A program made the translations under genes and the position numbers. From positions 31,180-95,179 of the forward strand of contig DAISVY010000003.1 of NCBI GenBank assembly GCA_036826635.1: a DNA stretch of 64,000 bases, read 5' to 3'. Source of the DNA: Candidatus Zixiibacteriota bacterium (GTDB lineage Bacteria; Zixibacteria; MSB-5A5; GN15; FEB-12). Position 1 is the stretch's first letter. Every line of letters begins with the position of its first letter. The notes below the pieces were generated by a model. That model worked only from the letters and a program-made list of their open reading frames with translations. It made no database searches and was not told where the DNA came from. Shown here piece by piece: positions 16,955 through 57,302 of the stretch.

Positions 16955-16994
16955 GATCGCACGGTATTCGATGAGTATGCAGGAGGAAAGTGTA

Positions 16995-19900: not shown

Positions 19901-20771
19901 GGCAACGCAGGGAGACACCGAGGTCATGACAGGACGTGCCTGGCTCTCCTCGTTTGATCCTCCCAAACCTTACGTTGCAATACTGGACACCGGTGCCGTA
20001 TTTACCTCGCTCGTTGATGTGGCCGGCATGACCGACGACTCCGTGTATGTCCAGGTCGATCCGTCCGGTGTTCCGACGGGTGTTCACTATGAACATGTTA
20101 TATACTGCGTCGATGAAAACTTAGGTACGGCTCGTCTGACCATCCGCCTGACGGTTGAGCCGTCCGGAGGAACGACCCCCGATAGTGCCTTCGTCGATCT
20201 GGACACGCTGTGTTTCACCGTCACGGAAAACGCGAATGACAGCATTGTGGGCTATGTAAGATTGTTCTCCAGCAATGCGCCGGCGGCTTTCAATGCCGTG
20301 GTGAATGACAGCGCAACTTTCATCGTCTGGTGCGTTAACGGCAGCGGTTTCACCGACGACTCGGTCTGTGTCTGTGTGCTTCCGTGGGATATCGGTGTAG
20401 GAACTCATTACACTTCCATCTCCTATTTCGTGGAGGGAGTCGCCGAGCCGGCCCGACTTGTCGTGTGTCTGACGGTCGAGGGTGCCGAGCACACCACCGT
20501 CGATCTTAGAGCCAATTTCCCCAATCCGTTTAACCCGGTGACCAACATCTCATTTGCCTTGAGTAATCCAGCGACAGTAGAGCTTTCCGTCTACAATGTG
20601 CTTGGTCGGAAAGTCGCCACGTTGATTAACGGAGATCTTCCGGCCGGTGAACACATAGTCGACTGGGACGGCACCGACAATACGGGTCGGGGAGTTTCCA
20701 GCGGCGTTTACTTCTATCGCCTGACAACGGGATCGTTCAGCGAGTCGAAGAAGATGCTGTTGCTCAAATAG
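16995..20771 (+). CDS. Secreted S8 subtilase with seven Ig/BACON-like repeats and a FlgD/T9SS-type C-terminal sorting domain
   Basis: AGGAGG RBS before ATG 16995; signal peptide and propeptide; triad IAVIDGG, GHGTFIAG, WSGTSFAAP and oxyanion AAGN; tail NFPNPFNP...IYNVLG-like...WDG...SSGVYFYRL...KKMLLLK. Confidence 0.93.
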   Translation: MIKKVNRLNSFGPAMVILLTLLLLCMGMTNSVIAGPAEKGMSQDRNYAPDSRDNTGPDGAYVQGELVIKLGGCDSVVIDDICQKYGASVNRYFEDLGIYVLNVNGETDHDSLCSIIESYSCVVFAHPNYRVDPLQPVQGSFPFSDENFAGDYRGQFAATALDLSSAQAIATGAGVRIAVIDGGINYRHPAFEGKAVSGYDFVDDDADAFDESGGPNTGHGTFIAGVIHLVAPDAEIVAYRVSETSGTSDGDLVAEAIVKAVHDGCQVINLSLVVMEEHQVIKAAIEYARENNVIVVVAAGNEQMGSPLYPASDENVIAVAALDSLDQLAEFSRYGSHIDVCAFGEDVYSPFIDTGYAWWSGTSFAAPFVAGQAGLIISQAPEDYTWSHTRQMILETAVSVDAENPDFAGYLGAGVIAPYASLTVSLESDSAWLWEDNKQFTINEGDPDIGPVCLMVSSTNEPAPFTVALSGEATFTTLRDSRGYTGDTLCFDLGGSALSPGYYADTLIFEVEGVDNNPLMAVFELQVNTDTAASDLAWVYPKVQQFTMYEGDETALVRSVSISSSNSPAPYTATLVNDGLFTDLLWDSGMTNDTLSFTVSAVGLTPNVYTDSLSISVEGISSPAWAVIVLQVLPHGTPLDTAWVSSDDLYFEAAEGSSWVDSSCVRLMSTNAPAPYTAYVVGGESSFVSLLNLDGGVTEDYICYIIDPTGLGTGVHRDSMVITVEGVSNSPLIVRFTLNIVGGGDTLAAVSPDTLFFTVVQGDTHVRTGCACLTSFNAPSPYIGINDTDAVFTTLISTAGVTNDTVCLLVDPSLMPVGVHYSRAMFFVDGVAERIDLITCLTVVDEIGPDTAWVSNDSLGFWVEEGTSWLDTGCVLVSSTNASAFYTAEAFGDPLFLSLVDSVGSGSGFTNSLVCFQINHQGLPLGVYKDSLIIDVEGVTNSPLVVPITLTVFTADTLVDISPDTLSFTATQGDTEVMTGRAWLSSFDPPKPYVAILDTGAVFTSLVDVAGMTDDSVYVQVDPSGVPTGVHYEHVIYCVDENLGTARLTIRLTVEPSGGTTPDSAFVDLDTLCFTVTENANDSIVGYVRLFSSNAPAAFNAVVNDSATFIVWCVNGSGFTDDSVCVCVLPWDIGVGTHYTSISYFVEGVAEPARLVVCLTVEGAEHTTVDLRANFPNPFNPVTNISFALSNPATVELSVYNVLGRKVATLINGDLPAGEHIVDWDGTDNTGRGVSSGVYFYRLTTGSFSESKKMLLLK
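18270..20483 (+). repeat. Seven tandem ~105-aa Ig/BACON-like domain repeats inside the S8 protein
   Basis: Each unit begins D(S/T)AW/xVSPDTLxF, contains SxNxPxP(Y/F) and G(Y/V/M/F)T(N/D)D, and ends VEGVxNxP...LxV. Boundaries approximate. Confidence 0.8.
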
Positions 20772-20808
20772 CGGCAGGAGCGGTCTGACTACAGACGCAT
20801 GATTGAGA

Positions 20809-20849
20809 AAAACCCGGCGGTGGCAACGTAAAGTCCATCGCCGGGTTTT
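20809..20849 (+). terminator. Bidirectional-type terminator hairpin
   Basis: AAAACCCGGCGGTGG...CCATCGCCGGGTTTT. Confidence 0.8.
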
Positions 20850-20917
20850 CATGTTTCTCGTTTAATCGGATTCTGCGCCGTGTGCCACTGACGGTAGCGT
20901 GCGATCAAAATTAGAAC

Positions 20918-20946
20918 TTGACAATCGTGTTCGATGGAAGTATGTT
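20918..20946 (+). promoter_or_regulatory. Sigma70-type promoter
   Basis: TTGACA-N17-TATGTT upstream of CDS 21162. Confidence 0.6.
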
Positions 20947-21161
20947 GAAAGTGGTTTGGGGCTCTTCGCATTGTCATCGTGTACATAACCCAGAACAGAT
21001 CGGGAGACTCTCTGATAGCCTTCCGTTTTATAATACTGTGCTTGTGCTTTTACAGGTGTTTTACTCCCTGCGTGTCGGATACGAAGTATCGATGACGTTG
21101 TGATATCGTTGTGGATATTCAAGACTTAATCCACCATAACCCGTTAAGCATAGGAGGAGGG

Positions 21162-21890
21162 ATGAGACAGAAGTGTCTGACAGTATTTGTAGTTGTGCTG
21201 TTCTGTTTGGCGGCTGCAACGGTTTGGCCTCAGGGTCAGTATCTGATTCGCGGTGACGTGGACGGTGATGAGTTCGTGGGTTGGGATGACGTTACCGACC
21301 TGACGATGTACATTAACAGTGGTATACCCATGAATTGTCACAATGCGGCCGATGTGAACGACGATGGCACGGTGGGAGACATAGCGGATTTAAATCATCT
21401 GGTGAGTTTTCTGAATACCGGAGAACCACCGATCCCGGAACCGTATCCCGACTGCGGCATCGATGAGACCGACCCGCTCCCGGGCGAGGATTGCTGTGAT
21501 CCGGGTCAGTTCTTCATTCGCGGAGATGCCAACGGCAACGGCCGTGTGGGCTGGGACGACTATGTGGAGATCCACGAATACCTTTTCGCCAGCACTCCGA
21601 TGGAATGCCACAATGCGGCTGATGTCAATGACGACGGTTTCATAGACCTGAACGACCTGTATCACCTCGGGAATTTCCTGCAATGGGGAGAGCCGCCGAT
21701 TCCGGAGCCGTATCCGTTCTGCGGTCTTGATCCGACCGATCCGCAGCCCGGTGATGATTGCTGTCGACGGAGAATTCTCACGGCTGTGCCGTCGATTACA
21801 CTGATAGGCGCATTGGCTCTGGTAGTTCTTTTGATAGCGATCGGTTCCTGGTTCTATCTGAGAAAGAGGACCAACACGGTCGGTCATTGA
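21162..21890 (+). CDS. Twin dockerin-like domain protein with C-terminal IPTL-CTERM-like membrane anchor
   Basis: GGAGGAGG RBS; signal peptide; two 90-aa units (IRGDxxGxxxVGWDD...CHNAADVNDDG...GEPPIPEPYPxCG...CC) with a 270-nt period; tail VPSITLIGALALVVLLIAIGSWFYLRKR. Confidence 0.8.
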   Translation: MRQKCLTVFVVVLFCLAAATVWPQGQYLIRGDVDGDEFVGWDDVTDLTMYINSGIPMNCHNAADVNDDGTVGDIADLNHLVSFLNTGEPPIPEPYPDCGIDETDPLPGEDCCDPGQFFIRGDANGNGRVGWDDYVEIHEYLFASTPMECHNAADVNDDGFIDLNDLYHLGNFLQWGEPPIPEPYPFCGLDPTDPQPGDDCCRRRILTAVPSITLIGALALVVLLIAIGSWFYLRKRTNTVGH

Positions 21891-21934
21891 ACAATTAACC
21901 GCGGAAGGGCCCCGGTCAAAATTATCCGAAATAC

Positions 21935-21965
21935 AAAACCCGGCGAGAGTCCATCGCCGGGTTTT
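21935..21965 (+). terminator. Bidirectional-type terminator hairpin
   Basis: AAAACCCGGCGA-GAGTCCA-TCGCCGGGTTTT, between convergent ORFs. Confidence 0.8.
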
Positions 21966-22013
21966 CGTATATCTGAGAGCGAAAGCCGCTTTTGCGGCGG
22001 CAGGTTGATCCGA

Positions 22014-22601
22014 TTATGGGCCGAAGTCGGCCAGAGGGCCGTTGACTCGGCGTGAGGTTCGCTTCGGGGTCGTTATTTTGTCGACAAACGTTGAGACCGC
22101 CGGTTTGATCAGTTCGGCCAATACGTAAGCCGCGGCCCGCAACCACCACTGGCGACTGAACACCTGAATAATTACGGCCATTATTTCCGGCGTGTTCCGG
22201 GCCAGGGTCCGTCCCACCACCTGCCAGACTGTCAACTCGTCAGGGTCGGATATCGACGGGTGGTATGGTCGATCTGTTTCCGGTAGCTGCGATGGTTTTT
22301 CCGAAGAAAACTGTCCCGGTGAGTTGTCAATGCGGTATTCCTCGGTTTGGGTTCCCCGGGTAACGTCGCTGTTCATTTTCTTGAGATAATCGCTGGAATA
22401 ACAACGCGGACCGCCATAGACAGAAACGCCCCCGGTCAGCAACATAAGCGTCAGGGCAAGCAGCAGAAGGCGACCGAGTCCGCCGCAGGGCAGGTAAACC
22501 CCGGACGTGCCGTGTCGTGAACCTTCGTCTGTCGGACGGTGCGGATACATCATACCGTATAGCTCTGCAAAAACAGTGCCGCGACGCTCCATGTTACTCA
22601 C
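22014..22601 (-). CDS. Hypothetical protein with one hydrophobic segment
   Basis: Only a substantial ORF filling the gap; hydrophobic LLLLALTLMLLTGG; no recognisable family; start uncertain. Confidence 0.4.
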   Translation of the reverse strand: MSNMERRGTVFAELYGMMYPHRPTDEGSRHGTSGVYLPCGGLGRLLLLALTLMLLTGGVSVYGGPRCYSSDYLKKMNSDVTRGTQTEEYRIDNSPGQFSSEKPSQLPETDRPYHPSISDPDELTVWQVVGRTLARNTPEIMAVIIQVFSRQWWLRAAAYVLAELIKPAVSTFVDKITTPKRTSRRVNGPLADFGP

Positions 22602-23178
22602 CCGATCAGATGCGGAGCTTTGGAAACTGTTTCATATTGCATCAACAGGTATTCTCAGAGGATACCTGACGAGTACATCCCCTTGGATTCCGGGTACAAA
22701 CGAGTCGTGGCGCGGTGTCACCCCTTATATGACAAATTACGCCGGTCGGCGAAGTTTGCAAGCACATTTTGTCTCTCTTATTCGTCTCTATGGTGAGAGC
22801 CGTGCAACCGGGTGCAGATTAAGGGAAGAGGCGACACCGAAGGGCCATCGCCCGGCAGCACCATTGTCGTCTGGCGTCTGCGGAGTAACGGTGCCAATGG
22901 ACAGAACAAGGTTATCAATCTTGATACCGCGTTATTGAATCAGGCTCAGTGCTCGGATGGCGTGTGCAGCATTGAGTGGATACCTGAATACCAACCGTCG
23001 TTTCCAAAGCAGGAGAGAGGTTATATAATCTCCGCTGTTTTTGCCGATTCGGTTGTCTATACATCAGCTTTAAGATTCTCCTCGTTTGACCTCGAGTGAC
23101 CCGTCGCCTACGCGCACAAGTAAGTCGCTGTCCGTCAATGTCTTAACCTGAGGTCGGAATGGTCCGGTCCATAAGCTC

Positions 23179-23206
23179 TTGACAGATAATTAAACCGGGC
23201 TATATT
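23179..23206 (+). promoter_or_regulatory. Sigma70-type promoter
   Basis: TTGACA-N16-TATATT upstream of the C25 gene. Confidence 0.55.
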
Positions 23207-23392
23207 TTTAATGGAAGAACACACTAGGGATTGCTAAGACTTAATGCCCCCTTTACCGCCGTTTTTGTGTATCCCTTGTTAGAGTCAAGCTGCCGGAGAT
23301 CAGTGTCTCCAGGAGAAAATTGCCGATAGTTAATATGCAGGGGCATATTGCCACCGGTAGAAACAGCTACGAATGGGTATTGAGGTTAGTTG

Positions 23393-26300
23393 ATGAGCAT
23401 CAAACAACACCAATCGAAAAGTTATGGGATGACAACCTGTCATGGCATGACCACCCGTCATGGCATGACCGCCTTGACCACGGCTATTGCCACGTTTCTT
23501 ATACTGGCCCTCGGTTTTGCCGTATCTTCGGCCGAGGAAATAACCGCCGAATATACTTTTGAGCGGCCCAGTATCCGACCGGTGACTATGGGAACCGAGT
23601 CCTATGACCACGTAACTATCGAAGGTCTGTCCAACTCGGGCGAAGTGGGCGAGCCGTACCTTCCGGCCTCGGGGGCGAGAATTCTTCTGCCTCCCGGAGC
23701 GGACGTTGAGAGTGTTGAAATAATCCCCGATGAGCCCGTGGTGGTAGCCAGCGGTATCAAAGTTGAACCGGCCGAACGCCCGGTGCCGCTGTCTTCGATG
23801 CCGACCGGTGCCGCCCCGCCGGTGCCCAAAGCTTCGATTTACGAATCCAACGATCCTTTTCCGGCCGTTACTCATGAAACTATCGGGACGCATACTTTCC
23901 GGGGCTACCGTATTCTGGTCCTCAAGCTGTACCCGGTTCAGTATTACCCGGTTTCCGGGGAGCTAAGCTATTTTCCTCGCCTGACGGTCAAAGTCACGAC
24001 CCGCAACGCCACGGCTCAGGTGCCTTCGTTCCGCGGGCTTGTCCGTGATCAGGAAGCTGTTGAACGCCAGGTTGACAATCCTGAGATCGTTTCGCGGTAC
24101 CCGTCGTATCCGATGGCCACCGGCCGCGGGTATGACATGCTGATTCTTACGACCAGTTCGCTGGCTTCCGCTTTCGAACCCCTGAGGACGTATCACAACA
24201 ATACCGGGCTGCTTACCGAGATTCGTACGACTTCCGACGTCGGCAGCAACGATCCCGACGATGTCCGTGATTACATCAGGGACCGGTACAACAATGACGG
24301 TATCCAGTTTGTGCTGATCGGTGGCGACGATGACATTATTCCGGCCAAGGACCTTTACGTTATATCGTGGGAAGGAGACGGTTCCAGTACCGAGTACAAT
24401 ATGCCCGGTGATATATATTTCGCCTGTCTCGACGGTACCTGGAACTACGACGGTGACTCCTATGTCGGTGAACCCGGCGACGGTGAGAGCGGTACGGATG
24501 TCGATCTGATTGCTGAGGTGTATGTCGGTCGCGCTTCGGTCAGTTCTTCTTCCGAGGCCAGTCGTTTTGTCGAAAAAACGCTCGAATATCTCTCCACCCA
24601 AAGCAGCTATCTGGAACGGGTTCTTTTGTGCGGTGAGTATCTCGGATTCGGCGGTGTTTCCGATTATGCCGGGAACATGATGGATGAGATGGTCGACAGC
24701 TCGTACGCCGGCGGTAGTCTTACGGTATGTATTCCCTCGGATAAATTTACCATCGATGAACTGTATGATCGCGACTGGTCCGGTAATGACTGGCCGACTT
24801 CGGAAATAATCAGTCGTATCAACAGCGGCCGGCACATTATCAACCATCTTGGTCACGGTTACAATAATCAGGCCATGAAGATGTACAACAGCACCGTGGC
24901 CAATAACCTGACCAATAACGATCTGGCGTTCGTATATACCCAGGCCTGCCTTTGTGGTCACTTCGACAACACCGACTGCTGGGCCGAGTATATGTCTATC
25001 AAGACGAACCATGCCGCCTTTGCCCTGGTGGCGAACTCGCGCTATGGCTGGGGGGCCGAATATAGTACCGACGGACCTTCCCAGCGTTACAACCGCCAGT
25101 TCTGGGATGCCGTGTTCAACCCGAACGAGAACAAACCGCAGCTCGGTCCGGCCAATCATGATTCCAAGGAAGATAATCTTTACCGGATCAACGAGAGTTG
25201 TATGCGTTGGTGTTACTACGAAACCAACCTCTTCGGCGACCCGGCCGTGCATTTCAGGGGGCTCGGCGGACTGGTATTTGATTACCCGGACGGAACTCCC
25301 TCGACCGTAACCCCGGGTGAGACCACCGATTTCCAGGTTAATGTCAGTGGTGTCAACGGGGGCGATCCGGTTGCCGGCAGCGGACAGTTGCACTACCGCA
25401 TAAACGGTGGTTCGTATTTGTTTGTCTCGATGTCGCAGACGACGGCCAATCACTATACGGCTACTATTCCGGCCCTAAGTTGTGACGAGACGATAGAATT
25501 TTATGTGAGTGCCGAGGAAACTGTCACCGGCCGCGTGTATGACCCCCTGCCCAGTTCACCGAACAGGGCTGTTCCGGTAAATGACTCTCTGGTCGTATTC
25601 TCGGACAATTTCGAGACCGATCAGGGATGGAGTGTTTCCGGTGATGCCGCCGACGGTCAATGGGAGCGCGGTGTTCCGGCCAACGGCAACCGGGGCGACC
25701 CACCGACCGACTACGACGGTTCGGGTCAGTGTTATTTGACCGGCAATGTCGCCGGTACCGACATCGACGACGGGACAACTTATCTCGATTCACCGGTGTT
25801 CGATCTTTCCGACCGTGTCGGCGTGGTGCATTATGCCCGCTGGTACTGTAACGACTACGGTGCGAACCCCAACGAGGATGTCTTCGTCGTATACGTATCG
25901 AACGATGCCGGAACCAACTGGGAGGTCGTCGATACTATCGGTCCTGCCGAGATGGCTTCCGGCGGATGGTATGAAGATTCTTTCCGACCGGGCGATTATG
26001 TTTCTCTTACCGACCAGATGAAAGTTCGGTTTGAGGCCTCGGATTTGGGTGATGGTTCGGTAGTGGAGGCGGCTATCGACGACTTTCGGGTTTACGAATA
26101 CCTTTGCGGTACGATGGCCGACAGTGATGAAGACGGTGTGGCCAATTCTCTCGACAACTGTCCCTTTACGTATAATCCGTACCAGGAAGATGGCGACGAG
26201 GACGGTTACGGCGACGTTTGCGACAACTGCGAGACGGTCTACAATCCCGATCAGGCGGACAGCGATGGGGATGAGTACGGTAATCTCTGCGACAACTGCC

Positions 26301-26824
26301 CCGATGTGGCCAACCCCGATCAGATCGATGCCGATGACGACGGCTATGGAGCCGCTTGTGACTGCGATGATAGTAATGAAGATATCAATCCCGAAACTGT
26401 CTGGTATGCCGATGGTGACAGCGATGGTTTCGGTGCGCCGGGTACGGGTATTACGCAATGCGAGCAGCCGAGCGGTTATGTTCTGAACAATACCGACAAT
26501 TGCCCTTCCGTTTCCAATCCGGGTCAGACCGATACGGATCAGGATGGTTTTGGCGACGCCTGTGATGCCGTCTGCTGTATGGGTGAGCGTACCGGCAATA
26601 TAGACTGCGACGGGGAAGATTTGGTCGATATGGGCGATCTGACCGTATTGATCGATCACTTGTTCATCAGCCTGGCCCCTCTGTCTTGTGTCGGGGAGGC
26701 GGATGTTGACCTGTCCGGTCAGCCGAATCCTGTGCCGACCGATGTCGACATGGGGGATTTGACGGTGATTATTGATCATTTGTTTATCAGTCTTGATCCG
26801 CTGCCGCTTTGTCCGGCAAAGTGA
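23393..26824 (+). CDS. Gingipain-like C25 cysteine peptidase with propeptide, adhesin/MAM-like domain, TSP3-like Ca-binding repeats and C-terminal dockerin-like domain
   Basis: Propeptide (GEVGEPYLP), FVLIGGD, DIYFACLDG, VYVGR, catalytic INHLGHG and QACLCGHFD, NLFGDP; DxDxDG...DNCP repeats; CC...DMGDLTVLIDHLFISL twice. GAGG RBS favours ATG 23393. Confidence 0.92.
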   Translation: MSIKQHQSKSYGMTTCHGMTTRHGMTALTTAIATFLILALGFAVSSAEEITAEYTFERPSIRPVTMGTESYDHVTIEGLSNSGEVGEPYLPASGARILLPPGADVESVEIIPDEPVVVASGIKVEPAERPVPLSSMPTGAAPPVPKASIYESNDPFPAVTHETIGTHTFRGYRILVLKLYPVQYYPVSGELSYFPRLTVKVTTRNATAQVPSFRGLVRDQEAVERQVDNPEIVSRYPSYPMATGRGYDMLILTTSSLASAFEPLRTYHNNTGLLTEIRTTSDVGSNDPDDVRDYIRDRYNNDGIQFVLIGGDDDIIPAKDLYVISWEGDGSSTEYNMPGDIYFACLDGTWNYDGDSYVGEPGDGESGTDVDLIAEVYVGRASVSSSSEASRFVEKTLEYLSTQSSYLERVLLCGEYLGFGGVSDYAGNMMDEMVDSSYAGGSLTVCIPSDKFTIDELYDRDWSGNDWPTSEIISRINSGRHIINHLGHGYNNQAMKMYNSTVANNLTNNDLAFVYTQACLCGHFDNTDCWAEYMSIKTNHAAFALVANSRYGWGAEYSTDGPSQRYNRQFWDAVFNPNENKPQLGPANHDSKEDNLYRINESCMRWCYYETNLFGDPAVHFRGLGGLVFDYPDGTPSTVTPGETTDFQVNVSGVNGGDPVAGSGQLHYRINGGSYLFVSMSQTTANHYTATIPALSCDETIEFYVSAEETVTGRVYDPLPSSPNRAVPVNDSLVVFSDNFETDQGWSVSGDAADGQWERGVPANGNRGDPPTDYDGSGQCYLTGNVAGTDIDDGTTYLDSPVFDLSDRVGVVHYARWYCNDYGANPNEDVFVVYVSNDAGTNWEVVDTIGPAEMASGGWYEDSFRPGDYVSLTDQMKVRFEASDLGDGSVVEAAIDDFRVYEYLCGTMADSDEDGVANSLDNCPFTYNPYQEDGDEDGYGDVCDNCETVYNPDQADSDGDEYGNLCDNCPDVANPDQIDADDDGYGAACDCDDSNEDINPETVWYADGDSDGFGAPGTGITQCEQPSGYVLNNTDNCPSVSNPGQTDTDQDGFGDACDAVCCMGERTGNIDCDGEDLVDMGDLTVLIDHLFISLAPLSCVGEADVDLSGQPNPVPTDVDMGDLTVIIDHLFISLDPLPLCPAK
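23421..23474 (+). repeat. Three 18-bp tandem units in the C25 leader
   Basis: GTTATGGGATGACAACCT / GTCATGGCATGACCACCC / GTCATGGCATGACCGCCT (xGMTT-type hexapeptides). Confidence 0.85.
26573..26824 (+). repeat. Cys-flanked dockerin-like tail, copy 1 (copy 2 at 29207-29449)
   Basis: CCxGxxxGNxD...VDMGDLTVLIDHLFISLxPLxCxxExDVDxSGQPxP...DVDMGDLTxxIDHLFISLxPLPxCP is nearly identical in both proteins while synonymous sites differ. Confidence 0.9.
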
Positions 26825-26844
26825 GCGTTTCGAGTAAAACCCGG

Positions 26845-26877
26845 GGCCATTCGCTGATTGGGCGGATGGCCTTTTTT
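26845..26877 (+). terminator. Rho-independent terminator
   Basis: GGCCATTCGC/GCGGATGGCC stem plus T6. Confidence 0.85.
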
Positions 26878-27025
26878 ATTAGAGAGAGTCTGTTTGACGA
26901 ATGGATATATTTTTATATATTTATGATGAGGACGGTGGTCGAGTCGGATTCGGCTGCTGTGTCGTCTGTTTCTTATTCGCTGGCTTTCAGAACATAAGTT
27001 GAAAACTGACCATATCGGAGGCAAT

Positions 27026-29449
27026 ATGAAACCGGCAGTTCTGTTCACGCTCGTTGTTTCACTGACATTGGCCTGTTTTGTCTTTATCGGCTCATCCCTG
27101 GCAGATCCGCCCGGCAGCTTCGATCTTCGTGATTACAACGGAGAGAATTACGTTACGTCAATCAAAGACCAAAGCGGTGGCACCTGCTGGACTCACGGGG
27201 CCATGGCCGCTATTGAGGGCAACCTTCTCATGACCGGGGCCTGGGCGGCCGCCGGCGAGGAAGGTGAACCGAACCTGGCCGAGTATCATCTGGACTGGTG
27301 GAACGGTTTCAACGAACATAATAACGACGATATCGATCCTCCCTCCGGGGCCGGGCTGGAGGTCCACCAGGGCGGCGACTACCTGGTCACGTCGGCCTAT
27401 CTCTCCCGCGGCGAGGGAGCGGTTCGTGACATTGACGGCCAGTCATACGGGAGCCCACCGCTTCGTGATGACCCGAGTTTTCATCATTACTACGTGCGCG
27501 ATATGGAGTGGCTGACGGCGGGTTCTGATCTCAGTAACATAAACGCCATCAAAGAGAGAATCATGACCGAGGGTGTCATGGGTACCTGTATGTATTACGA
27601 CGGTACTTTCATGCAGAACTACATCCATTACCAGCCCCCCAGTGATCTTAACGATCCCAATCACGCCGTTGCTATTATTGGTTGGGATGATGACCTGGAA
27701 ACCCAGGCGCCTTTGCCGGGAGCCTGGTTGTGCAAGAACAGTTGGGGGGCCAGTTGGGGCCTTGACGGCTGTTTCTGGATTTCCTATTACGACAAGCACT
27801 GCTGTCAAAATCCGGAGATGGGGGCAATTTCCTTCCGGAACGTAGAGCCGATGCCGTATGAGCATGTTTACTATCATGATTATCACGGTTGGCGGAACAC
27901 TAAGACGGATTGCTTTAAGGCTTTCAACGCTTTCGAGTGTGCCCAGGATGAATTGCTTCTGGCCGTCAGTTTCTACACGGCCGTCGATTCGGTCGATTAC
28001 ACCGTACATGTCTACGACCGTTTTGAAGGCGGTGAATTGCTCGATGAATTGGCCGTTCAGACCGGGACGATTGACCTGAGAGGTTATCACACGGTAGATC
28101 TGGAGAATGCCGTGGGGTTATCCGATGGTGACGATTTCTATGTTGTGCTGGAAGTTTCCGATGGCGGTATGGCGTACGACCAGACTTCCGACGTTCCTGT
28201 TCTTCTGGGTGCCAGTTATCGTACAATCGTCGAGTCGGACGCCAAGCCGGCCGAGAGCTACTACCTTGAAGGGGGGAGCACCTGGTTGGATTTGTATGAT
28301 CTGGATTCCACGGCCAATTTCTGTATCAAAGCTCTTACCCTGGAGGCGGGCGGCATGCGGGTAACGCCTTCCGGGAATAGTAGTGCGGAAGGATCTCAGG
28401 GCGGTCCCTTCACACCTTCGGACTGGATTTACGGAATCAACAGTCGGTGCGAGGTGACAATCGATTATGAAGTCACTGTTGATCCCACCGTGGATTGGCT
28501 GACCATAACCAGCGGGGCAAGCGGCTCTCTGGCTTTTCTGGATAGTGCCGAAGTAACCCTGGAGCTGAATGGCAATGCCACCGCTCTCGGTGAAGGCGTT
28601 CATTTCGCGCCTCTGGAGTTTACCAATTTGACCAATCATGATGGTGACACCACGCGCCGGATCGTACTTGTTATCGGTAATAGCGAGACACAGTACGAAT
28701 GGCTGCTCGATACCGATCCGGGGTGGACTACCGAAGGCGACTGGGAGTTCGGTCAACCGACCGGAGGTGGGTCGCACCTGGGTGATCCGGACTGTGGGTA
28801 CACCGGAGACAATGTCTATGGTTATAATCTTGAGGGTGACTATACCAATGATCTTCCCGCAACGTTCCTTACGACTACCGCTATAGACTGTACCGATCTC
28901 TACGGTGTGCAACTGAGTTTCTATCGCTGGTTAGGGGTGGAGTCGGTAAATAGCTACGATGAGGCCTCGGTGCAGGTAAGCAGTGACGGTGTGGACTGGA
29001 CCGTCATCTGGTCGGCCACGGCCACCGGTGGATATATCTCCGATTACGCATGGACTTTCCAGTCGTTCGATTTGCCCGGCAGCGTTGATAACCAGCCCAA
29101 TGTATACATCCGCTGGGGCATGGGCGCCACGGACCGCTCTCTGACCTACCCCGGCTGGAATATCGATGACATCCGTATTTCGGCCGTTTCGGCCGGTGCC
29201 AGTGGTTGTTGTGTGGGTGAGTCGGTCGGTAATATGGACGCTGTTCCCGGTGTCGTTGATATGGGCGATCTGACCGTGCTGATAGATCACCTGTTTATCA
29301 GTCTTGACCCGCTGCCTTGTATTGAAGAGGGCGACGTGGATATGTCCGGCCAGCCGGATCCGATAGCTTCCGACGTCGACATGGGTGATCTGACGCTATT
29401 GATAGATCATTTGTTTATCAGTCTTAATCCGCTGCCGCCGTGTCCATAG
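27026..29449 (+). CDS. Secreted C1A papain-family cysteine protease with lectin-like, BACON-like, adhesin-like and dockerin-like domains
   Basis: GGAGG RBS before ATG 27026; DLRD, KDQSGGTCW (Gln/Cys), NHAVAIIGW (His), KNSWG (Asn); C-terminal dockerin-like tail. Confidence 0.92.
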   Translation: MKPAVLFTLVVSLTLACFVFIGSSLADPPGSFDLRDYNGENYVTSIKDQSGGTCWTHGAMAAIEGNLLMTGAWAAAGEEGEPNLAEYHLDWWNGFNEHNNDDIDPPSGAGLEVHQGGDYLVTSAYLSRGEGAVRDIDGQSYGSPPLRDDPSFHHYYVRDMEWLTAGSDLSNINAIKERIMTEGVMGTCMYYDGTFMQNYIHYQPPSDLNDPNHAVAIIGWDDDLETQAPLPGAWLCKNSWGASWGLDGCFWISYYDKHCCQNPEMGAISFRNVEPMPYEHVYYHDYHGWRNTKTDCFKAFNAFECAQDELLLAVSFYTAVDSVDYTVHVYDRFEGGELLDELAVQTGTIDLRGYHTVDLENAVGLSDGDDFYVVLEVSDGGMAYDQTSDVPVLLGASYRTIVESDAKPAESYYLEGGSTWLDLYDLDSTANFCIKALTLEAGGMRVTPSGNSSAEGSQGGPFTPSDWIYGINSRCEVTIDYEVTVDPTVDWLTITSGASGSLAFLDSAEVTLELNGNATALGEGVHFAPLEFTNLTNHDGDTTRRIVLVIGNSETQYEWLLDTDPGWTTEGDWEFGQPTGGGSHLGDPDCGYTGDNVYGYNLEGDYTNDLPATFLTTTAIDCTDLYGVQLSFYRWLGVESVNSYDEASVQVSSDGVDWTVIWSATATGGYISDYAWTFQSFDLPGSVDNQPNVYIRWGMGATDRSLTYPGWNIDDIRISAVSAGASGCCVGESVGNMDAVPGVVDMGDLTVLIDHLFISLDPLPCIEEGDVDMSGQPDPIASDVDMGDLTLLIDHLFISLNPLPPCP
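29207..29449 (+). repeat. Cys-flanked dockerin-like tail, copy 2
   Basis: See copy 1 at 26573-26824. Confidence 0.9.
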
Positions 29450-29882: not shown

Positions 29883-31901
29883 ATGACCCGTCAGACTTCT
29901 GAGGTTACGGATACTAATAAGGCTTTTGACCCGTCGGAAAACTACGAGAGGACCAGGCGGCTGATCGGATATACCCCCCGTCAGCAAACCCCCGAAGAAA
30001 CGTACCGACACCTGGGGTTCAAATCGGGGTTGGAGATTCACCAGCAGCTTCTGACCGCCAAGAAGCTTTTCTGCCATTGTCCTGCCGGGATATACCAGCA
30101 TGGGGACCAGTTCGATGCCGAAGTCATCCGCCATATGCGGCCGACGCTCTCCGAGATGGGAGAATACGACGGTACCGCCCTTATGGAGAAACGGACGAAA
30201 AAGACAATCGTCTACCGCATTGCCAACGAAACAGCCTGCACGTACGATATAGACGATACGCCGCCTTTCAAAATAGACCGGGAAGCGCTCGACATCGCCC
30301 TGGAAATTTCCCTGCTTTTGAAGACGAATATCGTCGGAGAATTGCATATCACGCGCAAGCAGTATCTCGACGGCAGTATTCCCACCGGTTTTCAGCGCAC
30401 TGCTATTATCGGGATTGAGGGAGAAATTCCGCTCCGAAACAAGAAGGTTCGGATAATCCAGTTGAGTATTGAAGAGGATTCGTGTCGTGAGGTTTCGGAT
30501 ATCCGGCATACTCGCGTATATACGACCGACCGGCTCGGTATGCCGCTGGTGGAGATGGTTACCTACCCGGACATGTTGACTCCGGACGAGGCCGCCGAGG
30601 CGGGACAGTATCTGCGCACGCTGGTGCGGACCACCGGACGGGTTCGCACGGGGATCGGCGCCGGACGCGAGGATGTCAACGTCAGCATTACCGGTGGCAC
30701 GCGCGTCGAAATAAAAGGTGTTGCCCACATTAAGTGGATTCCGGAACTGACCCACAACGAAGCTTTCAGGCAAAAGGCCCTGTTGCAGATCAGGGAGATT
30801 TTGAAACACCGCGTTCCCGAGGCGGGATCATGGGAGATGACCCATGTTTGCAAGCCTTATGATGCCGCGGCTCATGTTTTTATACCGGTCGACTCTCAGG
30901 AAACCGACAAGGGTATAGACCTGGCCGCCGTGAACCTTCCTCATTTCAAAGGTCTTCTTTCATTCTTCACGCAACCTGATCAGGTCTTTGCCGATGAATT
31001 GATCGGCCGTCTGAAAGTGATCGCCTGTCTCGAAAAACCCAATCTCGTGCATTCGGAATCGACCCAATACCCGATCCCGGCTGAATATCTTAGCGCTCTG
31101 AGGCAGGAGTTGAAAGCTGGTGCGAATGATGCTCAACTGATGATCTGGGGACCGCCGGAAGATGTTAAGACGGCTCTTGATATCATTGAGGAGCGTTGTC
31201 GGATGGCTTTCGATGGTGTGCCGAATGAAACGCGAAAGTCCCTTCCGGGCGGTATTACGATTTTCGAGCGAGTCCTGCCCGGTCCTGATCGGATGTATCC
31301 CGATACCGATTCGGCACCGATCCCGGTTGGGGAAGAACAGATCGAGACCGCCCGCGCACGGCTTCCTGTCGATTTGGAAAAGACCTTGGAGAAACTTCGG
31401 GACTGGAAGGTTCCGGAGGATGCTTACTATTATCTCATTACGCGCTGTCTGATTGATCCGATTGAACGTGTCGTGACGGCCACTGGTTGGTCACCGTCGT
31501 TTGTCGCCGTTTTGTTCGGTCATACTTTGAAAGGTTTGCAGCGGCGCAATCGGGATCTGGCCGCGTTTCCGGAAAAACGCGTAGAAGAAATTTGCCGGTA
31601 CATTACGGATCGGGGGCTTCACCGCGATCTGGCCAAACCTTTGTTGTCGGTTTCTTTCCGGCAGCCGTCGGCCTCTCTTGACTCACTGTGCGATTCTCTG
31701 TGCACCGGCGATGGCGACCGGGAAGAGGTGTTTGCGGAGATTTCGCAACTGAGCGCTCGTTTTCACCGACATGATCGCTCGGTCAAACCCAATGCGTGTC
31801 GGCGCTGGATTGTCGGTCAATTGAAAAGCCGGGCAATGGGTACTACGATACCGCTTGCCGAGCTGTCTTCCCGCATCGAAGAGGATCATTGTAATGGCTG
31901 A
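29883..31901 (+). CDS. gatE: Glu-tRNA(Gln) amidotransferase subunit E (archaeal type)
   Basis: GFKSGLEIHQQL, DGSIPTGFQRTA, IEEDSCR, DRLGMPLVE, REDVNVSITGGTRVEIKGV, AspRS-like (GAD) insertion, VPNETRK, RVLPGPDRMYPDTD. Start ATG 29883 after an AAGGA/GAGG RBS. Confidence 0.92.
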   Translation: MTRQTSEVTDTNKAFDPSENYERTRRLIGYTPRQQTPEETYRHLGFKSGLEIHQQLLTAKKLFCHCPAGIYQHGDQFDAEVIRHMRPTLSEMGEYDGTALMEKRTKKTIVYRIANETACTYDIDDTPPFKIDREALDIALEISLLLKTNIVGELHITRKQYLDGSIPTGFQRTAIIGIEGEIPLRNKKVRIIQLSIEEDSCREVSDIRHTRVYTTDRLGMPLVEMVTYPDMLTPDEAAEAGQYLRTLVRTTGRVRTGIGAGREDVNVSITGGTRVEIKGVAHIKWIPELTHNEAFRQKALLQIREILKHRVPEAGSWEMTHVCKPYDAAAHVFIPVDSQETDKGIDLAAVNLPHFKGLLSFFTQPDQVFADELIGRLKVIACLEKPNLVHSESTQYPIPAEYLSALRQELKAGANDAQLMIWGPPEDVKTALDIIEERCRMAFDGVPNETRKSLPGGITIFERVLPGPDRMYPDTDSAPIPVGEEQIETARARLPVDLEKTLEKLRDWKVPEDAYYYLITRCLIDPIERVVTATGWSPSFVAVLFGHTLKGLQRRNRDLAAFPEKRVEEICRYITDRGLHRDLAKPLLSVSFRQPSASLDSLCDSLCTGDGDREEVFAEISQLSARFHRHDRSVKPNACRRWIVGQLKSRAMGTTIPLAELSSRIEEDHCNG

Positions 31902-33276
31902 TGAGCTTAAAGGATACAAAGGCAGTGCCCGGGCGATTCTCGAATCGTTCAAAGTCGCGGTTTGGAGCGACACTGTTATAAAAACCACCCGCGGCGAATT
32001 CAAAGGAATCATTCTCCCGCGTTCGGAAACCGACGACGATTCCCATATCGTTCTGAAACTGGCGACCGGTTACAACATCGGTATCGATGCGGCTACGGTT
32101 CTTAACATCGTCGAAAACGGCCGCAAGGAAGCTCACTATAAAATTCCCGAAAAAGAGTTCCCGTTCAGTGAAGGCAAGCCGGATATCAAGTTGTTCGGTA
32201 CCGGCGGGACCATCGCTTCCCGGCTCGATTATCGCACCGGGGCGGTTATCCCGGCTTTCTCGCCCGGTGAACTGTATGGGGCGGTTCCGGAACTGGCCGA
32301 AATATGTAATCTCACCACCGAGAAACTGTTTGCGGTCTTCTCCGAAAACATGGGCCCGGAGCAGTATAAAAAGCTGGCCGTGGCTATAGGTCAGGAGATC
32401 GAGAAAGGTGTCGACGGTATTGTCATCGGGCACGGTACGGACACTATGCACCACACCGGCGGAGCCCTGGCTTTCATGGTGCAGCATTCACCGGTGCCCA
32501 TAGTTTTGGTCGGTTCGCAACGGTCGTCCGACCGGCCGTCGTCCGACGCGGCTCTTAATCTTATCCATGCCACCAAGGCGGCCGCGGAATCGGACATCGC
32601 CGAGGTGATGGTTTGTATGTTCGGGCCGACTTCCGACGAGTACGGTTTACTGCATCGCGGCACCCGGGTAAGAAAAATGCACTCGTCTTATCGGTCGACT
32701 TTTCGGACTATCGGCGATATTCCCTTAGCCAGGGTTACGCGCGACGAGATTATTCCCATGAAGCATGACTATAATCGCCGCCGTAAGGATCGACACGTCG
32801 ATGTTCTTCCGTATTTCGAGGAAAAAGTCGCCCTTGTATACTATTATCCTAACATGCATCCCGATATCATCGATGCTCTGGTTGACAACAACTATCGGGG
32901 TATCGTGATAGCCGGAACCGGTCTGGGCCATGTCAACAAGCCGGTTTACCCGGCCATCAAGCGGGCTATCAAAGCCGGGGTGGCTATTTATATGACGGTG
33001 CAGACGCTCTGGGGCTATGTTCAGATGTATGTGTATGATACCGGCCGCGATCTTATGAGCATAGGTATCATTCCCGCCGAAAACATGCTTCCCGAAGTGG
33101 CTTATGTCAAACTGGGCTGGGCGCTTGGCCAGACCGATGATCTGAACAAAGTCCGGGAGCTTATGCTTACGCCGGTCTGCGGTGAGATAACCGAGAGAGA
33201 ACCTTACAACGGATATCTGGTCTTGCAGGGGGGCGTGCCCGAAGTCGAAGAGTTTATCCGCAAAGTACACAAATAG
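31894..33276 (+). CDS. gatD: Glu-tRNA(Gln) amidotransferase subunit D (asparaginase-like, archaeal type)
   Basis: N-terminal GatD domain (LKLATGYNIG), TGGTIASRLDYRTGAV, HGTDTM, VGSQRSSDRPSSD, RGTRVRKMHSS, GTGLGH, MLPEVAYVKLGW; ATG overlaps the gatE stop. Confidence 0.95.
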   Translation: MADELKGYKGSARAILESFKVAVWSDTVIKTTRGEFKGIILPRSETDDDSHIVLKLATGYNIGIDAATVLNIVENGRKEAHYKIPEKEFPFSEGKPDIKLFGTGGTIASRLDYRTGAVIPAFSPGELYGAVPELAEICNLTTEKLFAVFSENMGPEQYKKLAVAIGQEIEKGVDGIVIGHGTDTMHHTGGALAFMVQHSPVPIVLVGSQRSSDRPSSDAALNLIHATKAAAESDIAEVMVCMFGPTSDEYGLLHRGTRVRKMHSSYRSTFRTIGDIPLARVTRDEIIPMKHDYNRRRKDRHVDVLPYFEEKVALVYYYPNMHPDIIDALVDNNYRGIVIAGTGLGHVNKPVYPAIKRAIKAGVAIYMTVQTLWGYVQMYVYDTGRDLMSIGIIPAENMLPEVAYVKLGWALGQTDDLNKVRELMLTPVCGEITEREPYNGYLVLQGGVPEVEEFIRKVHK

Positions 33277-41135: not shown

Positions 41136-41207
41136 TAGCGGTACGGGGGATCGAACCCCGGCTTGATGGCTGAGAACCACCTGTCCTAACCACTAGACGA
41201 TACCGCC
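41136..41207 (-). tRNA. tRNA-Glu, anticodon CTC
   Basis: GGCGGTA-TC-GTCTAGTGGTTAGGAC-A-GGTGG-TTCTCAG-CCATC-AAGC-CGGGG-TTCGATC-CCCCG-TACCGCT-A folds to a cloverleaf; CCA not encoded. Confidence 0.97.
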
Positions 41208-41271: not shown

Positions 41272-41696
41272 GTTAATTTAACTTATTGCATATCAGTGTC
41301 TTACGGCCGCGATTTCGGTTAATCTCATGCCCCGAAACAGCTTATCGAAATAGCTTTTTTTTTGGATTTTCCTGATTTTATCCGGATCAGGCCATGATTT
41401 TCACGGGGTTGTTCTGCCATAATGGCATGCCAGCCGCCTCGGCCGTTTAGATGTGAGCCTTCGGCCGTGTCCGGGTCGGCTCGGCGGCCGATGCGTAATC
41501 GACGATTCGACAAATCGTTCGGTCATTTGGCGATGCCCGGAGCGTTGAGGCCAAAGACATTTAACCAAATGGAGGGGCTGTCGGGAAAATGGGCTTGTCG
41601 GGATGTTTCTTGGCTGTTGTTTTTTTTGCGTTTGATTCCCCGGGGGGCACTTCTATATTGGTAAGACTATCGACTCTGTTCTATGGAGGATGCCGT

Positions 41697-49867: not shown

Positions 49868-49935
49868 GAAGAAGCTATATGGCGAATGCGACCGCGAAGC
49901 AACAAAAACAAGATATCTTCGCGTCCCGGCGGTGA

Positions 49936-49964
49936 TTGACTCAATCGGTTGCCTTGTATATATT
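49936..49964 (+). promoter_or_regulatory. Sigma70-type promoter for hutU
   Basis: TTGACT-N17-TATATT. Confidence 0.65.
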
Positions 49965-55478: not shown

Positions 55479-57302
55479 GTGCCCCCATATACCGAATTAA
55501 AACGCAGCCACACTTGTGGCGAGTTACGCTCCTCTGATGCCGGTATCAGCGTTTGTCTTAACGGGTGGGTAGACGGTGACAGACATCTGGGCGGACTTTT
55601 GTTTTTGGACCTGCGTGACCGCTACGGTCTTACTCAGGTTGTTATAAATCCTCAGGACTTCGATTCCCAAATGCTGGCGGTTGCGGAAAGAGTGCGTTCC
55701 GAGTTCGTCGTGGCCGTGAAGGGAAAAGTTCGGAGGCGACCCGAAGGTACGGTTAATCCCAGGCTCGAAACCGGGGAGATTGAAGTCGTGGCCGAGGAAT
55801 TTCATATCCTTGCTGAGTCTAAGACCCCTCCCTTCGAGATTGTCGATGACACCACGGCCAAGGAAAAACTGCGCCTGGAATATCGCTATCTTGACCTTCG
55901 CCGGCGGCCGTTGCAGGAGGCGCTCAGGGTGCGTCATCAGACAACCATGGCCATGCGCAATTACATGGATTCGGTAGGTTTCCTGGAGATCGAGACCCCT
56001 CTTCTGATCCGGTCCACTCCCGAGGGAGCGCGTGATTATGTCGTGCCCAGCCGGGTTTATCCGGGCAAGTTTTATGCCCTGCCGCAGTCGCCGCAATTGC
56101 TCAAGCAGTTGCTCATGGTGTCCGGTTTCGATAAGTATTTCCAACTTGCCCGCTGTCTGCGCGATGAAGATTTGCGTTCCGACCGTCAGCCGGAACATAC
56201 GCAGCTTGATGTGGAGATGTCGTTTGTCACTCCCGAGGATGTCTGGGAAGTCAGCGAAGGGGTGATGGCGGCTGTTTTCGAAAAAGTGCTGGGGGTGAAA
56301 CTGGCTACGCCGTTCGAGCGGTTCAGTTATCAGGAAGTAATGAACCGCTGGGGGATAGACAAGCCGGATCTTCGCTTCGGTATGGAAATAATCGATCTTT
56401 CCGATATCGTGCGCGATTGCGATTTTAAGGTGTTCGCTGACAATGTCAAATCCGGTGGGGTGGTCAAAGGGATTGTCCTGAAAGGCGGCGGCGGATATTC
56501 GCGCAAACAGATCGACGAGTTGACCGGCCTGGCCAAAGAAAACGGGGCGCTTGGGCTGGCCTATATCCTGCGCACCGAGAGCGAGGACAAGTCGCCTGTT
56601 CTCAAATTCATCGGCGAGTCGGTGAAAGACAAGCTGGTTGAAAAAGCCGGTGTCGAGAAGGGCGATGCTCTCTTTATCGTTTCCGATAAACCGCTCAAGG
56701 CCGAAGGGATTCTGGGACAACTCCGGCTTCATCTGGGGCATGCTCACAAGCTGGTCAAATCCGATGAATTCAAATTCCTCTGGGTATCGGAGTTTCCGTT
56801 GTTCGACTACAACGAGGAGAAGTCTCGTTTCGAGGCCATGCATAACATCGTGTCACACCCGCTGGAAACCGATCTGGCTCTTATCGACGAAGGTTTCGAT
56901 TCATCTTTGGCGCCGACCGATATTAACCATCCCTGGCGTCGGGTCAGGGCTGCCCAGTACGATTTGGTCTTCAATGGTTGCGAAATAGCTTCCGGGGGGC
57001 AGCGCATAAATCGTCGTGAATTACAGGAAAAGATTCTGGCTGTTTTGGGGATCGATCATGAGCGCGCCGATAAGATGTTCGGATTCCTGCTCAGGGCTCT
57101 CGAATATGGTGCCCCTCCGCACGCCGGTATCGCCATCGGGCTTGATCGATTGGTTTCGCTGATGCTGGGTCGTGAGAGTATCCGCGACGTGATTGCTTTT
57201 CCCAAAACCACCAACGCTGCCTCGCTTATGGACCAGACGCCGTCGGAACTGGACGCCGAGCAGCTCGCCGAACTCGGGTTGGCTATTACTAAGAGGGAAT
57301 AA
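55479..57302 (+). CDS. aspS: Aspartate-tRNA ligase (bacterial type)
   Basis: RSHTCGEL, FLDLRD, YRYLDLRR, TPEGARDY, ALPQSPQ, RDEDLRSDRQPE, GAD insert, GGQRI, GAPPHAGIAIGLDRL, VIAFPK. Confidence 0.98.
   Translation: MPPYTELKRSHTCGELRSSDAGISVCLNGWVDGDRHLGGLLFLDLRDRYGLTQVVINPQDFDSQMLAVAERVRSEFVVAVKGKVRRRPEGTVNPRLETGEIEVVAEEFHILAESKTPPFEIVDDTTAKEKLRLEYRYLDLRRRPLQEALRVRHQTTMAMRNYMDSVGFLEIETPLLIRSTPEGARDYVVPSRVYPGKFYALPQSPQLLKQLLMVSGFDKYFQLARCLRDEDLRSDRQPEHTQLDVEMSFVTPEDVWEVSEGVMAAVFEKVLGVKLATPFERFSYQEVMNRWGIDKPDLRFGMEIIDLSDIVRDCDFKVFADNVKSGGVVKGIVLKGGGGYSRKQIDELTGLAKENGALGLAYILRTESEDKSPVLKFIGESVKDKLVEKAGVEKGDALFIVSDKPLKAEGILGQLRLHLGHAHKLVKSDEFKFLWVSEFPLFDYNEEKSRFEAMHNIVSHPLETDLALIDEGFDSSLAPTDINHPWRRVRAAQYDLVFNGCEIASGGQRINRRELQEKILAVLGIDHERADKMFGFLLRALEYGAPPHAGIAIGLDRLVSLMLGRESIRDVIAFPKTTNAASLMDQTPSELDAEQLAELGLAITKRE

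Follow-up and report, generated by a model that had tools for sequence, protein, structure and literature searches.

We analysed a stretch of 64,000 nucleotides (the window) from a Candidatus Zixiibacteriota bacterium (assembly GCA_036826635.1, contig DAISVY010000003.1, positions 31,180 to 95,179 of the forward strand), in which an earlier note, made from the letters alone, had pointed to an archaeal-type GatDE amidotransferase operon among bacterial genes. Two adjacent genes on the + strand are concerned. gatE (29883..31901) runs from an ATG to a TGA and codes for the 672-residue subunit E of Glu-tRNA(Gln) amidotransferase, the kinase/transamidase subunit that binds the tRNA; gatD (31894..33276) codes for subunit D, a glutaminase of 460 residues. 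The open frame of gatE extends upstream to a TTG, and the ATG start is the one that agrees with the alignment of homologues. The start codon of gatD lies within the end of gatE, and the overlap of 8 nucleotides described in the earlier note (ATGGCTGA, 31894..31901, + strand) is read directly from the sequence; it is predicted to couple the translation of the two genes. In several relatives (loci L001, L007 and L016, for example) the match to gatD also starts ahead of the end of the match to gatE.

The gatE-gatD pair and its bacterial host

The two proteins are a true GatE and a true GatD, as the earlier note had it: they pass the equivalog cut-offs, match the solved archaeal enzymes and keep the catalytic residues. 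GatE scores 465 bits with the NCBIfam model NF003107 (cut-off 456) and 393 bits with TIGR00134 (cut-off 319.6), and GatD scores 520 bits with TIGR02153 (cut-off 324). Pfam recognises GatB_N in GatE (160 bits) and, in GatD, the N-terminal GatD_N domain (31978-32100, + strand) that the earlier note had assigned to it, followed by the N and C domains of the asparaginases (32185-32751 and 32824-33165, + strand). Among structures in the Protein Data Bank (PDB), the best matches of GatE are 2d6f_C (1.8e-83) and 1zq1_C (6.6e-79), which belong to solved archaeal GatDE; GatD matches 1zq1_A at 1.5e-119 and the other solved archaeal GatDE enzyme at 2.3e-118. The AlphaFold model of GatE has a pLDDT (the predicted local confidence score) of 78, and a Foldseek search with this model returns the GatE chains of 2D6F and 1ZQ1 first (E ~1e-35) and GatB second. 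That GatD could be an ordinary type I asparaginase, and GatE a divergent GatB, is ruled out: the models of those families also score significantly, but lower (386 bits for the type I asparaginase model on GatD, 117 bits against a cut-off of 338 for the best GatB model on GatE), GatD_N is present, the asparaginase outgroup is separated from GatD with a bootstrap of 100%, and GatE has an AspRS-like insertion which GatB lacks. Type I L-asparaginases such as that of Thermococcus kodakarensis (5OT0) have the fold and the catalytic Thr/Asp/Lys of the C-terminal two thirds of GatD, but neither GatD_N nor a GatE partner, and they score ~129 bits versus ~400 bits for the solved GatD chains.

Four catalytic-type motifs, whose core residues are invariant in the alignment of GatD, follow one another on the + strand of gatD: GTGGTIAS (32197-32220), HGTDTM (32431-32448), SSDRPSSD (32524-32547, residues 211-218) and VRKMHSS (32668-32688). 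The third, which the earlier note had singled out, is identical in archaeal GatD. In GatE, the catalytic cradle common to GatB and GatE contains GLEIHQQL (30027..30050, + strand), whose G49, E51 and H53 are invariant; 42 positions, including those of GLEIH, RK, EED and R.D.N.S, are invariant across bacterial GatE, Asgard GatE, classical archaeal GatE and GatB. The stretch RKQYLDGSIPTGFQRT (30354..30401, + strand) starts with RKQYLDGSI (residues 158-166, 30354-30380) and holds the motif that is diagnostic of the subfamily, according to counts across the same four groups. The AspRS-like (GAD-like) insertion that the earlier note had recognised spans residues ~311-445 (30813..31217, + strand): it aligns with the insertion of 2d6f_C and 1zq1_C, is predicted to fold as an alpha/beta domain, and gives weak Foldseek matches to bacterial AspRS, after GatE and GatB. 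The Pfam domain GAD is detected in some close relatives of this GatE and not in the window protein itself. The helical and YqeY-like tail domains (residues ~481-672, 31323..31898, + strand) are supported by a profile of the bacterial clade, which aligns through the C-terminal ends of the archaeal GatE and GatB tails. The tail is predicted to be helical, and Pfam GatB_Yqey (PF02637) gives no match in the window GatE.

The resemblance to classical archaeal GatDE (Methanothermobacter thermautotrophicus, 2D6F; Pyrococcus abyssi, 1ZQ1) extends over the full length of both subunits. The catalytic motifs are the same and so is the domain plan: GatD consists of GatD_N and asparaginase-like domains, and GatE of the cradle, the AspRS-like insertion and, by profile alignment, the helical domain and a YqeY-like tail. 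The mean identity between bacterial and classical archaeal sequences is ~31% for GatE and 43% for GatD. Classical GatDE differs in that it has the motif RKxVIDGSN instead of RKQYLDGSIP and the gene order gatD-gatE instead of gatE-gatD; the window protein has, in addition, an N-terminal extension, a remodelled tail and a bacterial host. GatCAB, which does the same job in most bacteria, shares with GatE the cradle, helical and tail domains of its subunit GatB (3H0L, 3AL0, 3IP4), the 42 invariant positions and the kinase/transamidase chemistry, but the partners of GatB are the amidase GatA and GatC, not an asparaginase-like subunit.

The host chromosome is bacterial and belongs to Zixibacteria. 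The same contig carries genes for MurA (TIGR01072, 512 bits), a sigma-54 activator, a TolC-like protein, PorV/PorQ, peptidases with type IX secretion sorting tails, PhoH and PgpH; of the bacterial neighbours cited in the earlier note, MurA and the sigma-54 activator are those found with hidden Markov models (HMMs), together with these further bacterial genes. Outside the operon, a bacterial-type AspRS with a GAD domain (55479..57302, + strand; TIGR00459 aspS_bact, 696 bits) serves as a lineage marker: it is 65-76% identical to that of Zixiibacteriota metagenome-assembled genomes (MAGs), and the gatE-gatD pair is present in three of these as well; on this ground we assign the window to Zixibacteria. 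The G+C content (GC) of gatE and gatD is 0.541 and 0.534, that of their third codon positions (GC3) 0.60 and 0.62, and their codon-usage distance to the remaining window 0.58 and 0.71. All these values are within the range of the other 20 window genes, in agreement with the similar composition claimed in the earlier note.

The earlier note had also envisaged a chimeric assembly. GatDE is regarded as an archaeal signature and mis-binning does occur in data sets of this kind (L207, see below), but an archaeal fragment joined to bacterial DNA, or binned with it, is excluded here, because the same pair recurs in hundreds of independent bacterial assemblies, among which are the closed chromosomes CP070756, CP070777 and CP070674 (Zixibacteria), OY762964 (Cloacimonadales) and OY760517 (Melioribacteraceae), as well as a single-cell genome, Cloacimonetes AAA252-N17; moreover the genes lie in the middle of 64 kb with bacterial genes on both sides and similar GC and codon usage, their nearest relatives are all on bacterial contigs, and the bacterial sequences form a clade of their own, whose identity to any archaeal group is just 31-50%. 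For bacterial loci in which both genes were recovered, the order gatE-gatD was found in 76/76 loci of a first scan and 64/66 of a second, in varied bacterial contexts.

Locus L207 (JAPHEG010000011.1, labelled Candidatus Thermodesulfobacterium syntrophicum MCA70) is a contig of 5.9 kb in a bacterial bin, with a classical archaeal gatE that is 50% identical to that of P. abyssi. Candidatus Alkanophaga (L194) was obtained from the same enrichment, and the contig has probably been mis-binned; a second acquisition by bacteria is the less likely reading.

The bacterial clade and its Asgard relatives

The window pair is one member of a large bacterial clade that spans many phyla, and not the product of an isolated event. 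A protein search with the window GatE gave more than 8000 candidates, the best 120 of which are full-length and 56-63% identical to it, the named ones being Zixibacteria and other bacterial MAGs. In a scan across GTDB species, with one genome for each, 256 loci had a window-like GatE. In a second scan, seeded with Asgard GatD, the matches listed include at least Ignavibacteria/Melioribacteraceae, Bacteroidota, Calditrichota, Cloacimonadota, Aminicenantes, Gemmatimonadota, Phycisphaerae and Myxococcota. A second subclade (Melioribacteraceae-like), searched on its own, also gave more than 8000 candidates, and the best 120 are all full-length close relatives. Within the main clade, identity to the window is 63-83% for GatD and 42-62% for GatE; it is lower in the divergent loci L081-L083. 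The two subunits are encoded together and evolve as a pair, as judged from the overlap of 8 nucleotides, from the adjacency of the genes in nearly all bacterial loci, and from the three clades common to the GatD and GatE trees. Apart from gatE and gatD themselves, no gene is common to the loci (970 open reading frames, or ORFs, clustered from 80 loci), and scans for promoters and terminators around the operon gave counts near the shuffled expectation.

This distribution is not the one given in the literature: GatDE is stated to be restricted to archaea (PMC2811023; the 2022 review PMC9499178), and this restriction feeds arguments on the evolution of Gln-tRNA synthesis and on why archaea never acquired GlnRS. 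The earlier note, too, took GatDE for an archaeal signature. As a rule of distribution this is wrong, since it is breached by the Zixibacteria chromosome and by the many phyla of the bacterial clade; the breach has no bearing on family membership. Full-text literature searches found no published description of bacterial GatDE or of its Asgard affinity, and neither the Zixibacteria RBG-1 paper nor the Caldithrix genome paper mentions GatDE. Such proteins already carry the names GatD and GatE in annotation pipelines, and the chemistry of the enzyme is not new. What is new is an orthodox family in the "wrong" domain of life, where it makes up a separate subfamily that can be told by its signature, by its gene order and by peculiarities in tRNA binding. 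There may be a practical side to it: TIGR02153 and TIGR00134 are presumably among the archaeal marker models and, if they are, bacterial copies could distort the assignment of MAGs to a domain and the estimates of contamination.

Trees were calculated by neighbour-joining, with 100 bootstraps and two distance corrections. They contain 150 GatD representatives (one for each cluster of a library at 50% identity, placed by the contexts of their loci), 19 named Asgard loci and 80 named classical archaeal loci (Thermococci, methanogens, Bathyarchaeia, Desulfurococcales, Hadesarchaea, Halobacteria, Thermoplasmata, Nitrososphaeria, Altiarchaeales). The outgroups were taken from solved structures, GatB for GatE and type I asparaginases for GatD. 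The phylogenies that the earlier note proposed keep GatD clear of the type I asparaginases, as said above. Bacteria are monophyletic with GatD (94-98%), with GatE (95-99%) and with the concatenated alignment of 1064 columns (100%). Bacteria and Asgard group together with 100% support both with GatD and with the concatenated alignment; a group of all archaea receives 0% in either case. In the GatD tree rooted with asparaginases, bacteria and Asgard fall within a grade of classical archaea, and Jord, Odin and Heimdall branch before the bacteria; Asgard are paraphyletic, the bacteria being sister to a Loki/Thor/Hod/Sigyn group (~51%).

Similar conclusions are drawn from direct comparisons. Bacterial GatD is on average 50% identical to Asgard GatD versus 43% for classical archaea, and an Asgard HMM outscores a classical-archaeal HMM for 67/68 bacterial GatD and 63/68 bacterial GatE. 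The nearest archaeal relatives of the window GatDE are the Asgard enzymes rather than the classical ones. The window pair is 48-57% identical to Asgard proteins (loci L084-L105, L123 and L158, from Sigyn-, Loki/Prometh-, Thor-, Hod-, Odin-, Jord- and Heimdallarchaeia) for GatD, and just 34-42% for GatE. Asgard GatE keeps a basic motif in its tail and has no N-terminal extension, and the window protein is the opposite on both counts. The Asgard hosts are archaea, presumably with an archaeal-type tRNA(Gln), whereas the host of the window pair is a bacterium.

The motif that the earlier note called diverged provides another link with Asgard. RKQYLDGSIP[TA]GFQ is found in 130/133 bacterial GatE, and RKNYLDGSV in 19/19 Asgard-type GatE, followed by P in 18 of them (RKNYLDGSVPxGFQ) and by T in Odin; all 80 classical archaeal GatE have RKxV[IV]DGS, with N as the next residue in 79. 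The bacterial motif does differ from the classical RKxVIDGSN, but there is nothing odd about it, being the standard Asgard/bacterial form: RKQYLDGSIP is a signature of this subfamily rather than a mark of decay. Since the counterpart in GatB is RKxYFYPDxPKGYQ, the Y and the P of the motif are ancestral states that the Asgard/bacterial branch has kept. Gene order gives the same partition: gatE precedes gatD in bacteria and in 18/19 Asgard loci, and gatD is directly upstream of gatE in 57/80 classical loci. The window thus shows the RK[QN]YLDGS[IV]P motif, the gatE-gatD order and the grouping apart from classical GatDE that characterise the Asgard/bacterial type.

Heimdall (L105) is the sole Asgard-type locus with the order gatD-gatE. 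Its position in the trees is unstable, and we dropped gene order as a marker of the direction of transfer on account of this locus. A polarisation of signature sites with GatB as the outgroup was also abandoned, too few columns passing the filter; Y161 and P167 are ancestral, hence uninformative for grouping, and D474 alone looks like a derived state common to bacteria and Asgard. It is important to note that Asgard are not all alike: a 4-kb contig labelled Hermodarchaeota (L192) has the classical motif and the gatD-gatE order.

Proposed function and history

We favour, with a probability of about 0.72, the reading that the window codes for a functional, coupled GatE-GatD amidotransferase of Zixibacteria, which derives from an ancient transfer of the Asgard type followed by spread among bacteria. 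By homology with the solved archaeal enzyme, GatD would hydrolyse glutamine (or asparagine) at its asparaginase-type Thr/Thr-Asp/Lys site and the ammonia would pass to GatE; the latter would bind Glu-tRNA(Gln) made by a non-discriminating GluRS, phosphorylate the gamma-carboxyl with ATP and amidate it to give Gln-tRNA(Gln). As for history, a gatE-gatD cassette would have moved anciently from an Asgard-type archaeal branch into bacteria, and would later have passed from one bacterial phylum to another. We favour an Asgard-like archaeal origin because the presence of GatDE is patchy among bacteria but universal among archaea, because the Asgard type is found in at least 7 Asgard classes, and because the rooted GatD tree nests Asgard and bacteria among archaea. 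The transfer appears to be old, since the composition of the genes fully matches that of the host, the bacterial clade is deeply split and many phyla have been reached; this breadth also argues for later spread from bacterium to bacterium. The old archaea-to-bacteria transfer of the earlier note is still the best reading, with the donor refined to the Asgard type by the GatD and concatenated trees, the motif and gene order. If it is correct, the Asgard link adds a translation-related gene to the record of gene flow between Asgard and bacteria.

A number of observations do not sit easily with this reading. The trees are distance-based, and many taxon labels of MAGs are unreliable. With GatE alone, rooted with GatB, bacteria and Asgard group with just 62-67% support, a grouping of all archaea obtaining 30-38%. 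The nesting of bacteria inside Asgard is seen in the GatD tree alone, where it is weak, and in the concatenated tree Asgard (61-70%) and bacteria are reciprocally monophyletic, so that the shape of the tree does not fix the direction of transfer. The other observations concern GatE itself: the basic tail motif RG[KR]xDG is lost in 120/120 proteins of the subclade to which the window belongs (subclade 1), the window protein included, and the segment equivalent to the GatE motif GXXAXGX is not conserved. The tail of GatE is known for D-loop recognition, and the cradle for recognition of the first base pair (PMC2811023; PMC9499178); the GXXAXGX motif has been implicated in the rejection of Asp-tRNA(Asn) (PMC2811023). 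Because the tail motif is lost and this segment is not conserved, the substrate specificity may differ from that of the archaeal enzyme.

These losses are part of a wider remodelling of GatE. Within bacteria the mean identity is 71% for GatD and 48% for GatE: GatD has stayed very conserved, whereas the tRNA-binding subunit has diverged fast, especially in its tail. The divergence of the tail that the earlier note had observed is real: the domain is present (the diverged motif RRWIVGQLKSRAMGTTIPLAEL lies at 31800-31865, + strand, within the YqeY-like tail) and the basic motif is lost specifically in subclade 1. RG[KR]xDG is present in 19/19 Asgard, in 63/78 classical archaeal and in about one third of subclade-2 GatE, while GatB, which reads U1-A72 with a 3-10 turn, has a Lys-rich motif in its tail (PMC2811023). 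At the other end of the protein, subclade-1 GatE has an extension of 25-35 residues with a conserved segment, FDPxxNYExxRxxxGYxPR (29925..29981, + strand), which is missing in Asgard and classical GatE; as a consequence GLEIH starts at residue 39-49 in 120 subclade-1 proteins, versus residue 14-15 in archaea. The AlphaFold model has a helix at residues 17-28 of this extension, with high pLDDT. It may be that the changes in the N-terminus and in the tail reflect a retuning to bacterial tRNA(Gln) and GluRS partners, with which they fit; they equally allow an altered or broadened range of substrates. In the first case the bacterial clade would be a natural experiment, in which an enzyme adjusted to the tRNA(Gln) of archaea (with A1-U72 and an archaeal D-loop) presumably now works with a bacterial tRNA(Gln) and a bacterial GluRS, and the fast-evolving tail and N-terminus would point to the site of retuning.

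In the second case the enzyme would be active without being a dedicated Glu-tRNA(Gln) amidotransferase any longer; it could, for instance, have become a dual Asp/Glu enzyme that replaces GatCAB in both roles, or have taken another substrate. We hold this to be unlikely. The loss of RG[KR]xDG in all 120 window-like GatE, the unconserved GXXAXGX equivalent and the much faster evolution of GatE compared to GatD are what one would expect from a change of job, and bacterial tRNA(Gln) normally has U1-A72, while archaeal GatDE reads A1-U72 (PMC9499178). Divergent derivatives also exist (the L082 fusion and L083, where AsnA, radical SAM and cyclase-like genes are present; both are described below). 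On the contrary, the catalytic core is conserved in its entirety, as is the AspRS-like insertion, the scores of both proteins exceed the equivalog cut-offs, and the tail motif is retained by Asgard and by about one third of subclade-2 GatE, so that the clade looks orthodox overall.

In the cell, GatDE may have replaced GatCAB, as the earlier note supposed for Gln, or GlnRS, or may be redundant with them; the genes that bear on this are those of the partners and of the other routes. None of gatCAB, glnS, gltX and asnS was found within the 64-kb window, whose only tRNA gene is that of tRNA-Glu(CUC) (41136-41207, - strand), and ARAGORN detected no tRNA-Gln or tRNA-Asn in the window, in 60 loci, and then in all 245 sequences (2.9 Mb). 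Neither tblastn, for which GatE and AspRS served as paralogue probes, nor signature scans revealed a gatB, a GluRS/GlnRS or an amidase in 2.26 Mb of loci; this sample amounts to ~0.6 genome and the obligatory GluRS was equally unseen, which is why the absence of gatCAB and glnS says nothing. Likewise, no AsnRS was found in the related loci of the first scan, and queries with solved GatB together with the same signature scans returned nothing in the 0.12 Mb of Zixibacteria AspRS loci, absences that say nothing either.

Regarding history, the direction might be the reverse, or the origin deeper. The bacterial/Asgard type of GatDE could be ancient in bacteria, perhaps a legacy of the last common ancestor that most bacterial lineages no longer have, and Asgard would have acquired it from bacteria in replacement of classical GatDE. 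Bacterial GatDE would then be a third deep lineage of the family, which either dates from the last common ancestor or was born in bacteria and passed to the ancestor of most Asgard. We consider this scenario, in either version, quite improbable. The GatE tree rooted with GatB is compatible with it, as its three clades are well supported and their branching order is not, and so is the reciprocal monophyly of bacteria and Asgard in the concatenated tree. Bacterial and Asgard GatE retain the GatB-like Y161 and P167, which makes the classical archaea the derived ones, and a contig with an Asgard (Hermodarchaeota) label has the classical type. Sheppard and Soll (2008), as cited in PMC9499178, proposed that both amidotransferases were carried by the last universal common ancestor. 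Set against this are the universality of GatDE in archaea and its patchiness in bacteria, the occurrence of the type in at least 7 Asgard classes, and the asparaginase-rooted GatD tree, which puts bacteria and Asgard inside the classical grade with Jord, Odin and Heimdall branching first; as to the Hermodarchaeota contig, it is just 4 kb long and may be mis-binned. Were the third lineage real, it would be direct sequence evidence that both amidotransferases predate the split between bacteria and archaea, and a step of translation in the closest archaeal relatives of eukaryotes would be derived from bacteria.

Divergent loci and other genes of the window

Some loci depart from the usual arrangement. 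L082 (9301-12132, Logan DRR333436 contig) contains an ORF of 943 residues in which ~480 N-terminal residues of GatE, with the cradle and the motif RKPYLDGSIPSGFQ, are in frame with a complete GatD, and from which the helical and tail domains of GatE are missing. It is either natural, as a fusion or truncation, or an artefact of assembly or of an indel.

L083 (5671-12657, Logan SRR27730043 contig) has a very divergent GatE-like gene (650 residues, 31% identity to the window) whose motif, ALRPVNDGSALAGFQ, has lost the RK, and a GatD-like gene (470 residues, 38% identity); between the two lie genes for a squalene-hopene-cyclase-like protein and for a radical SAM protein. The gene directly after gatD is AsnA, and the context, with a type IX secretion tail, is that of the Fibrobacteres-Chlorobi-Bacteroidetes group. 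This may be a pair of paralogues with a new function.

Locus L121 (CP070751.1, 5.16 Mb) is labelled "Thermoplasmata archaeon bin33" and yet carries a GatD (71% identical to the window) and a GatE (45%) of the bacterial clade. The two genes are on different strands, and the one immediately upstream of gatD codes for glutamine synthetase. This is either a mislabelled genome or a case of transfer back into an archaeon; the neighbours glnA, hypF, hypB and an aminotransferase gene point to neither domain.

In the window itself, a run of large secreted-protease genes (14225-29449) lies directly upstream of gatE. According to domain matches, it comprises a CHAT-TPR protein (14225-16954), a subtilase with FlgD-Ig and a type IX secretion tail (16941-20771), a dockerin-domain protein (21111-21890), a C25 gingipain-like peptidase (23390-26824) and a papain-like C1 peptidase with a lectin-like domain (26999-29449). 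Two ORFs on the + strand (3403-4143, 246 residues, and 4368-5180, 270 residues) have no match in Pfam or NCBIfam; both sit between a BamB-like propeller gene and a two-component system.

Last, we note that GatDE is not the only family of the window with archaeal-looking relatives. A Lon-like protease of 879 residues (41589-44228, + strand) matches the LonB-like AAA, "archaeal LonB AAA-lid" and LonC helical models. Further downstream, domain matches identify the urocanase gene hutU (49866-51653, + strand), followed by an amidohydrolase gene (51687-52982, + strand), the two being probably part of a histidine-utilisation cluster.

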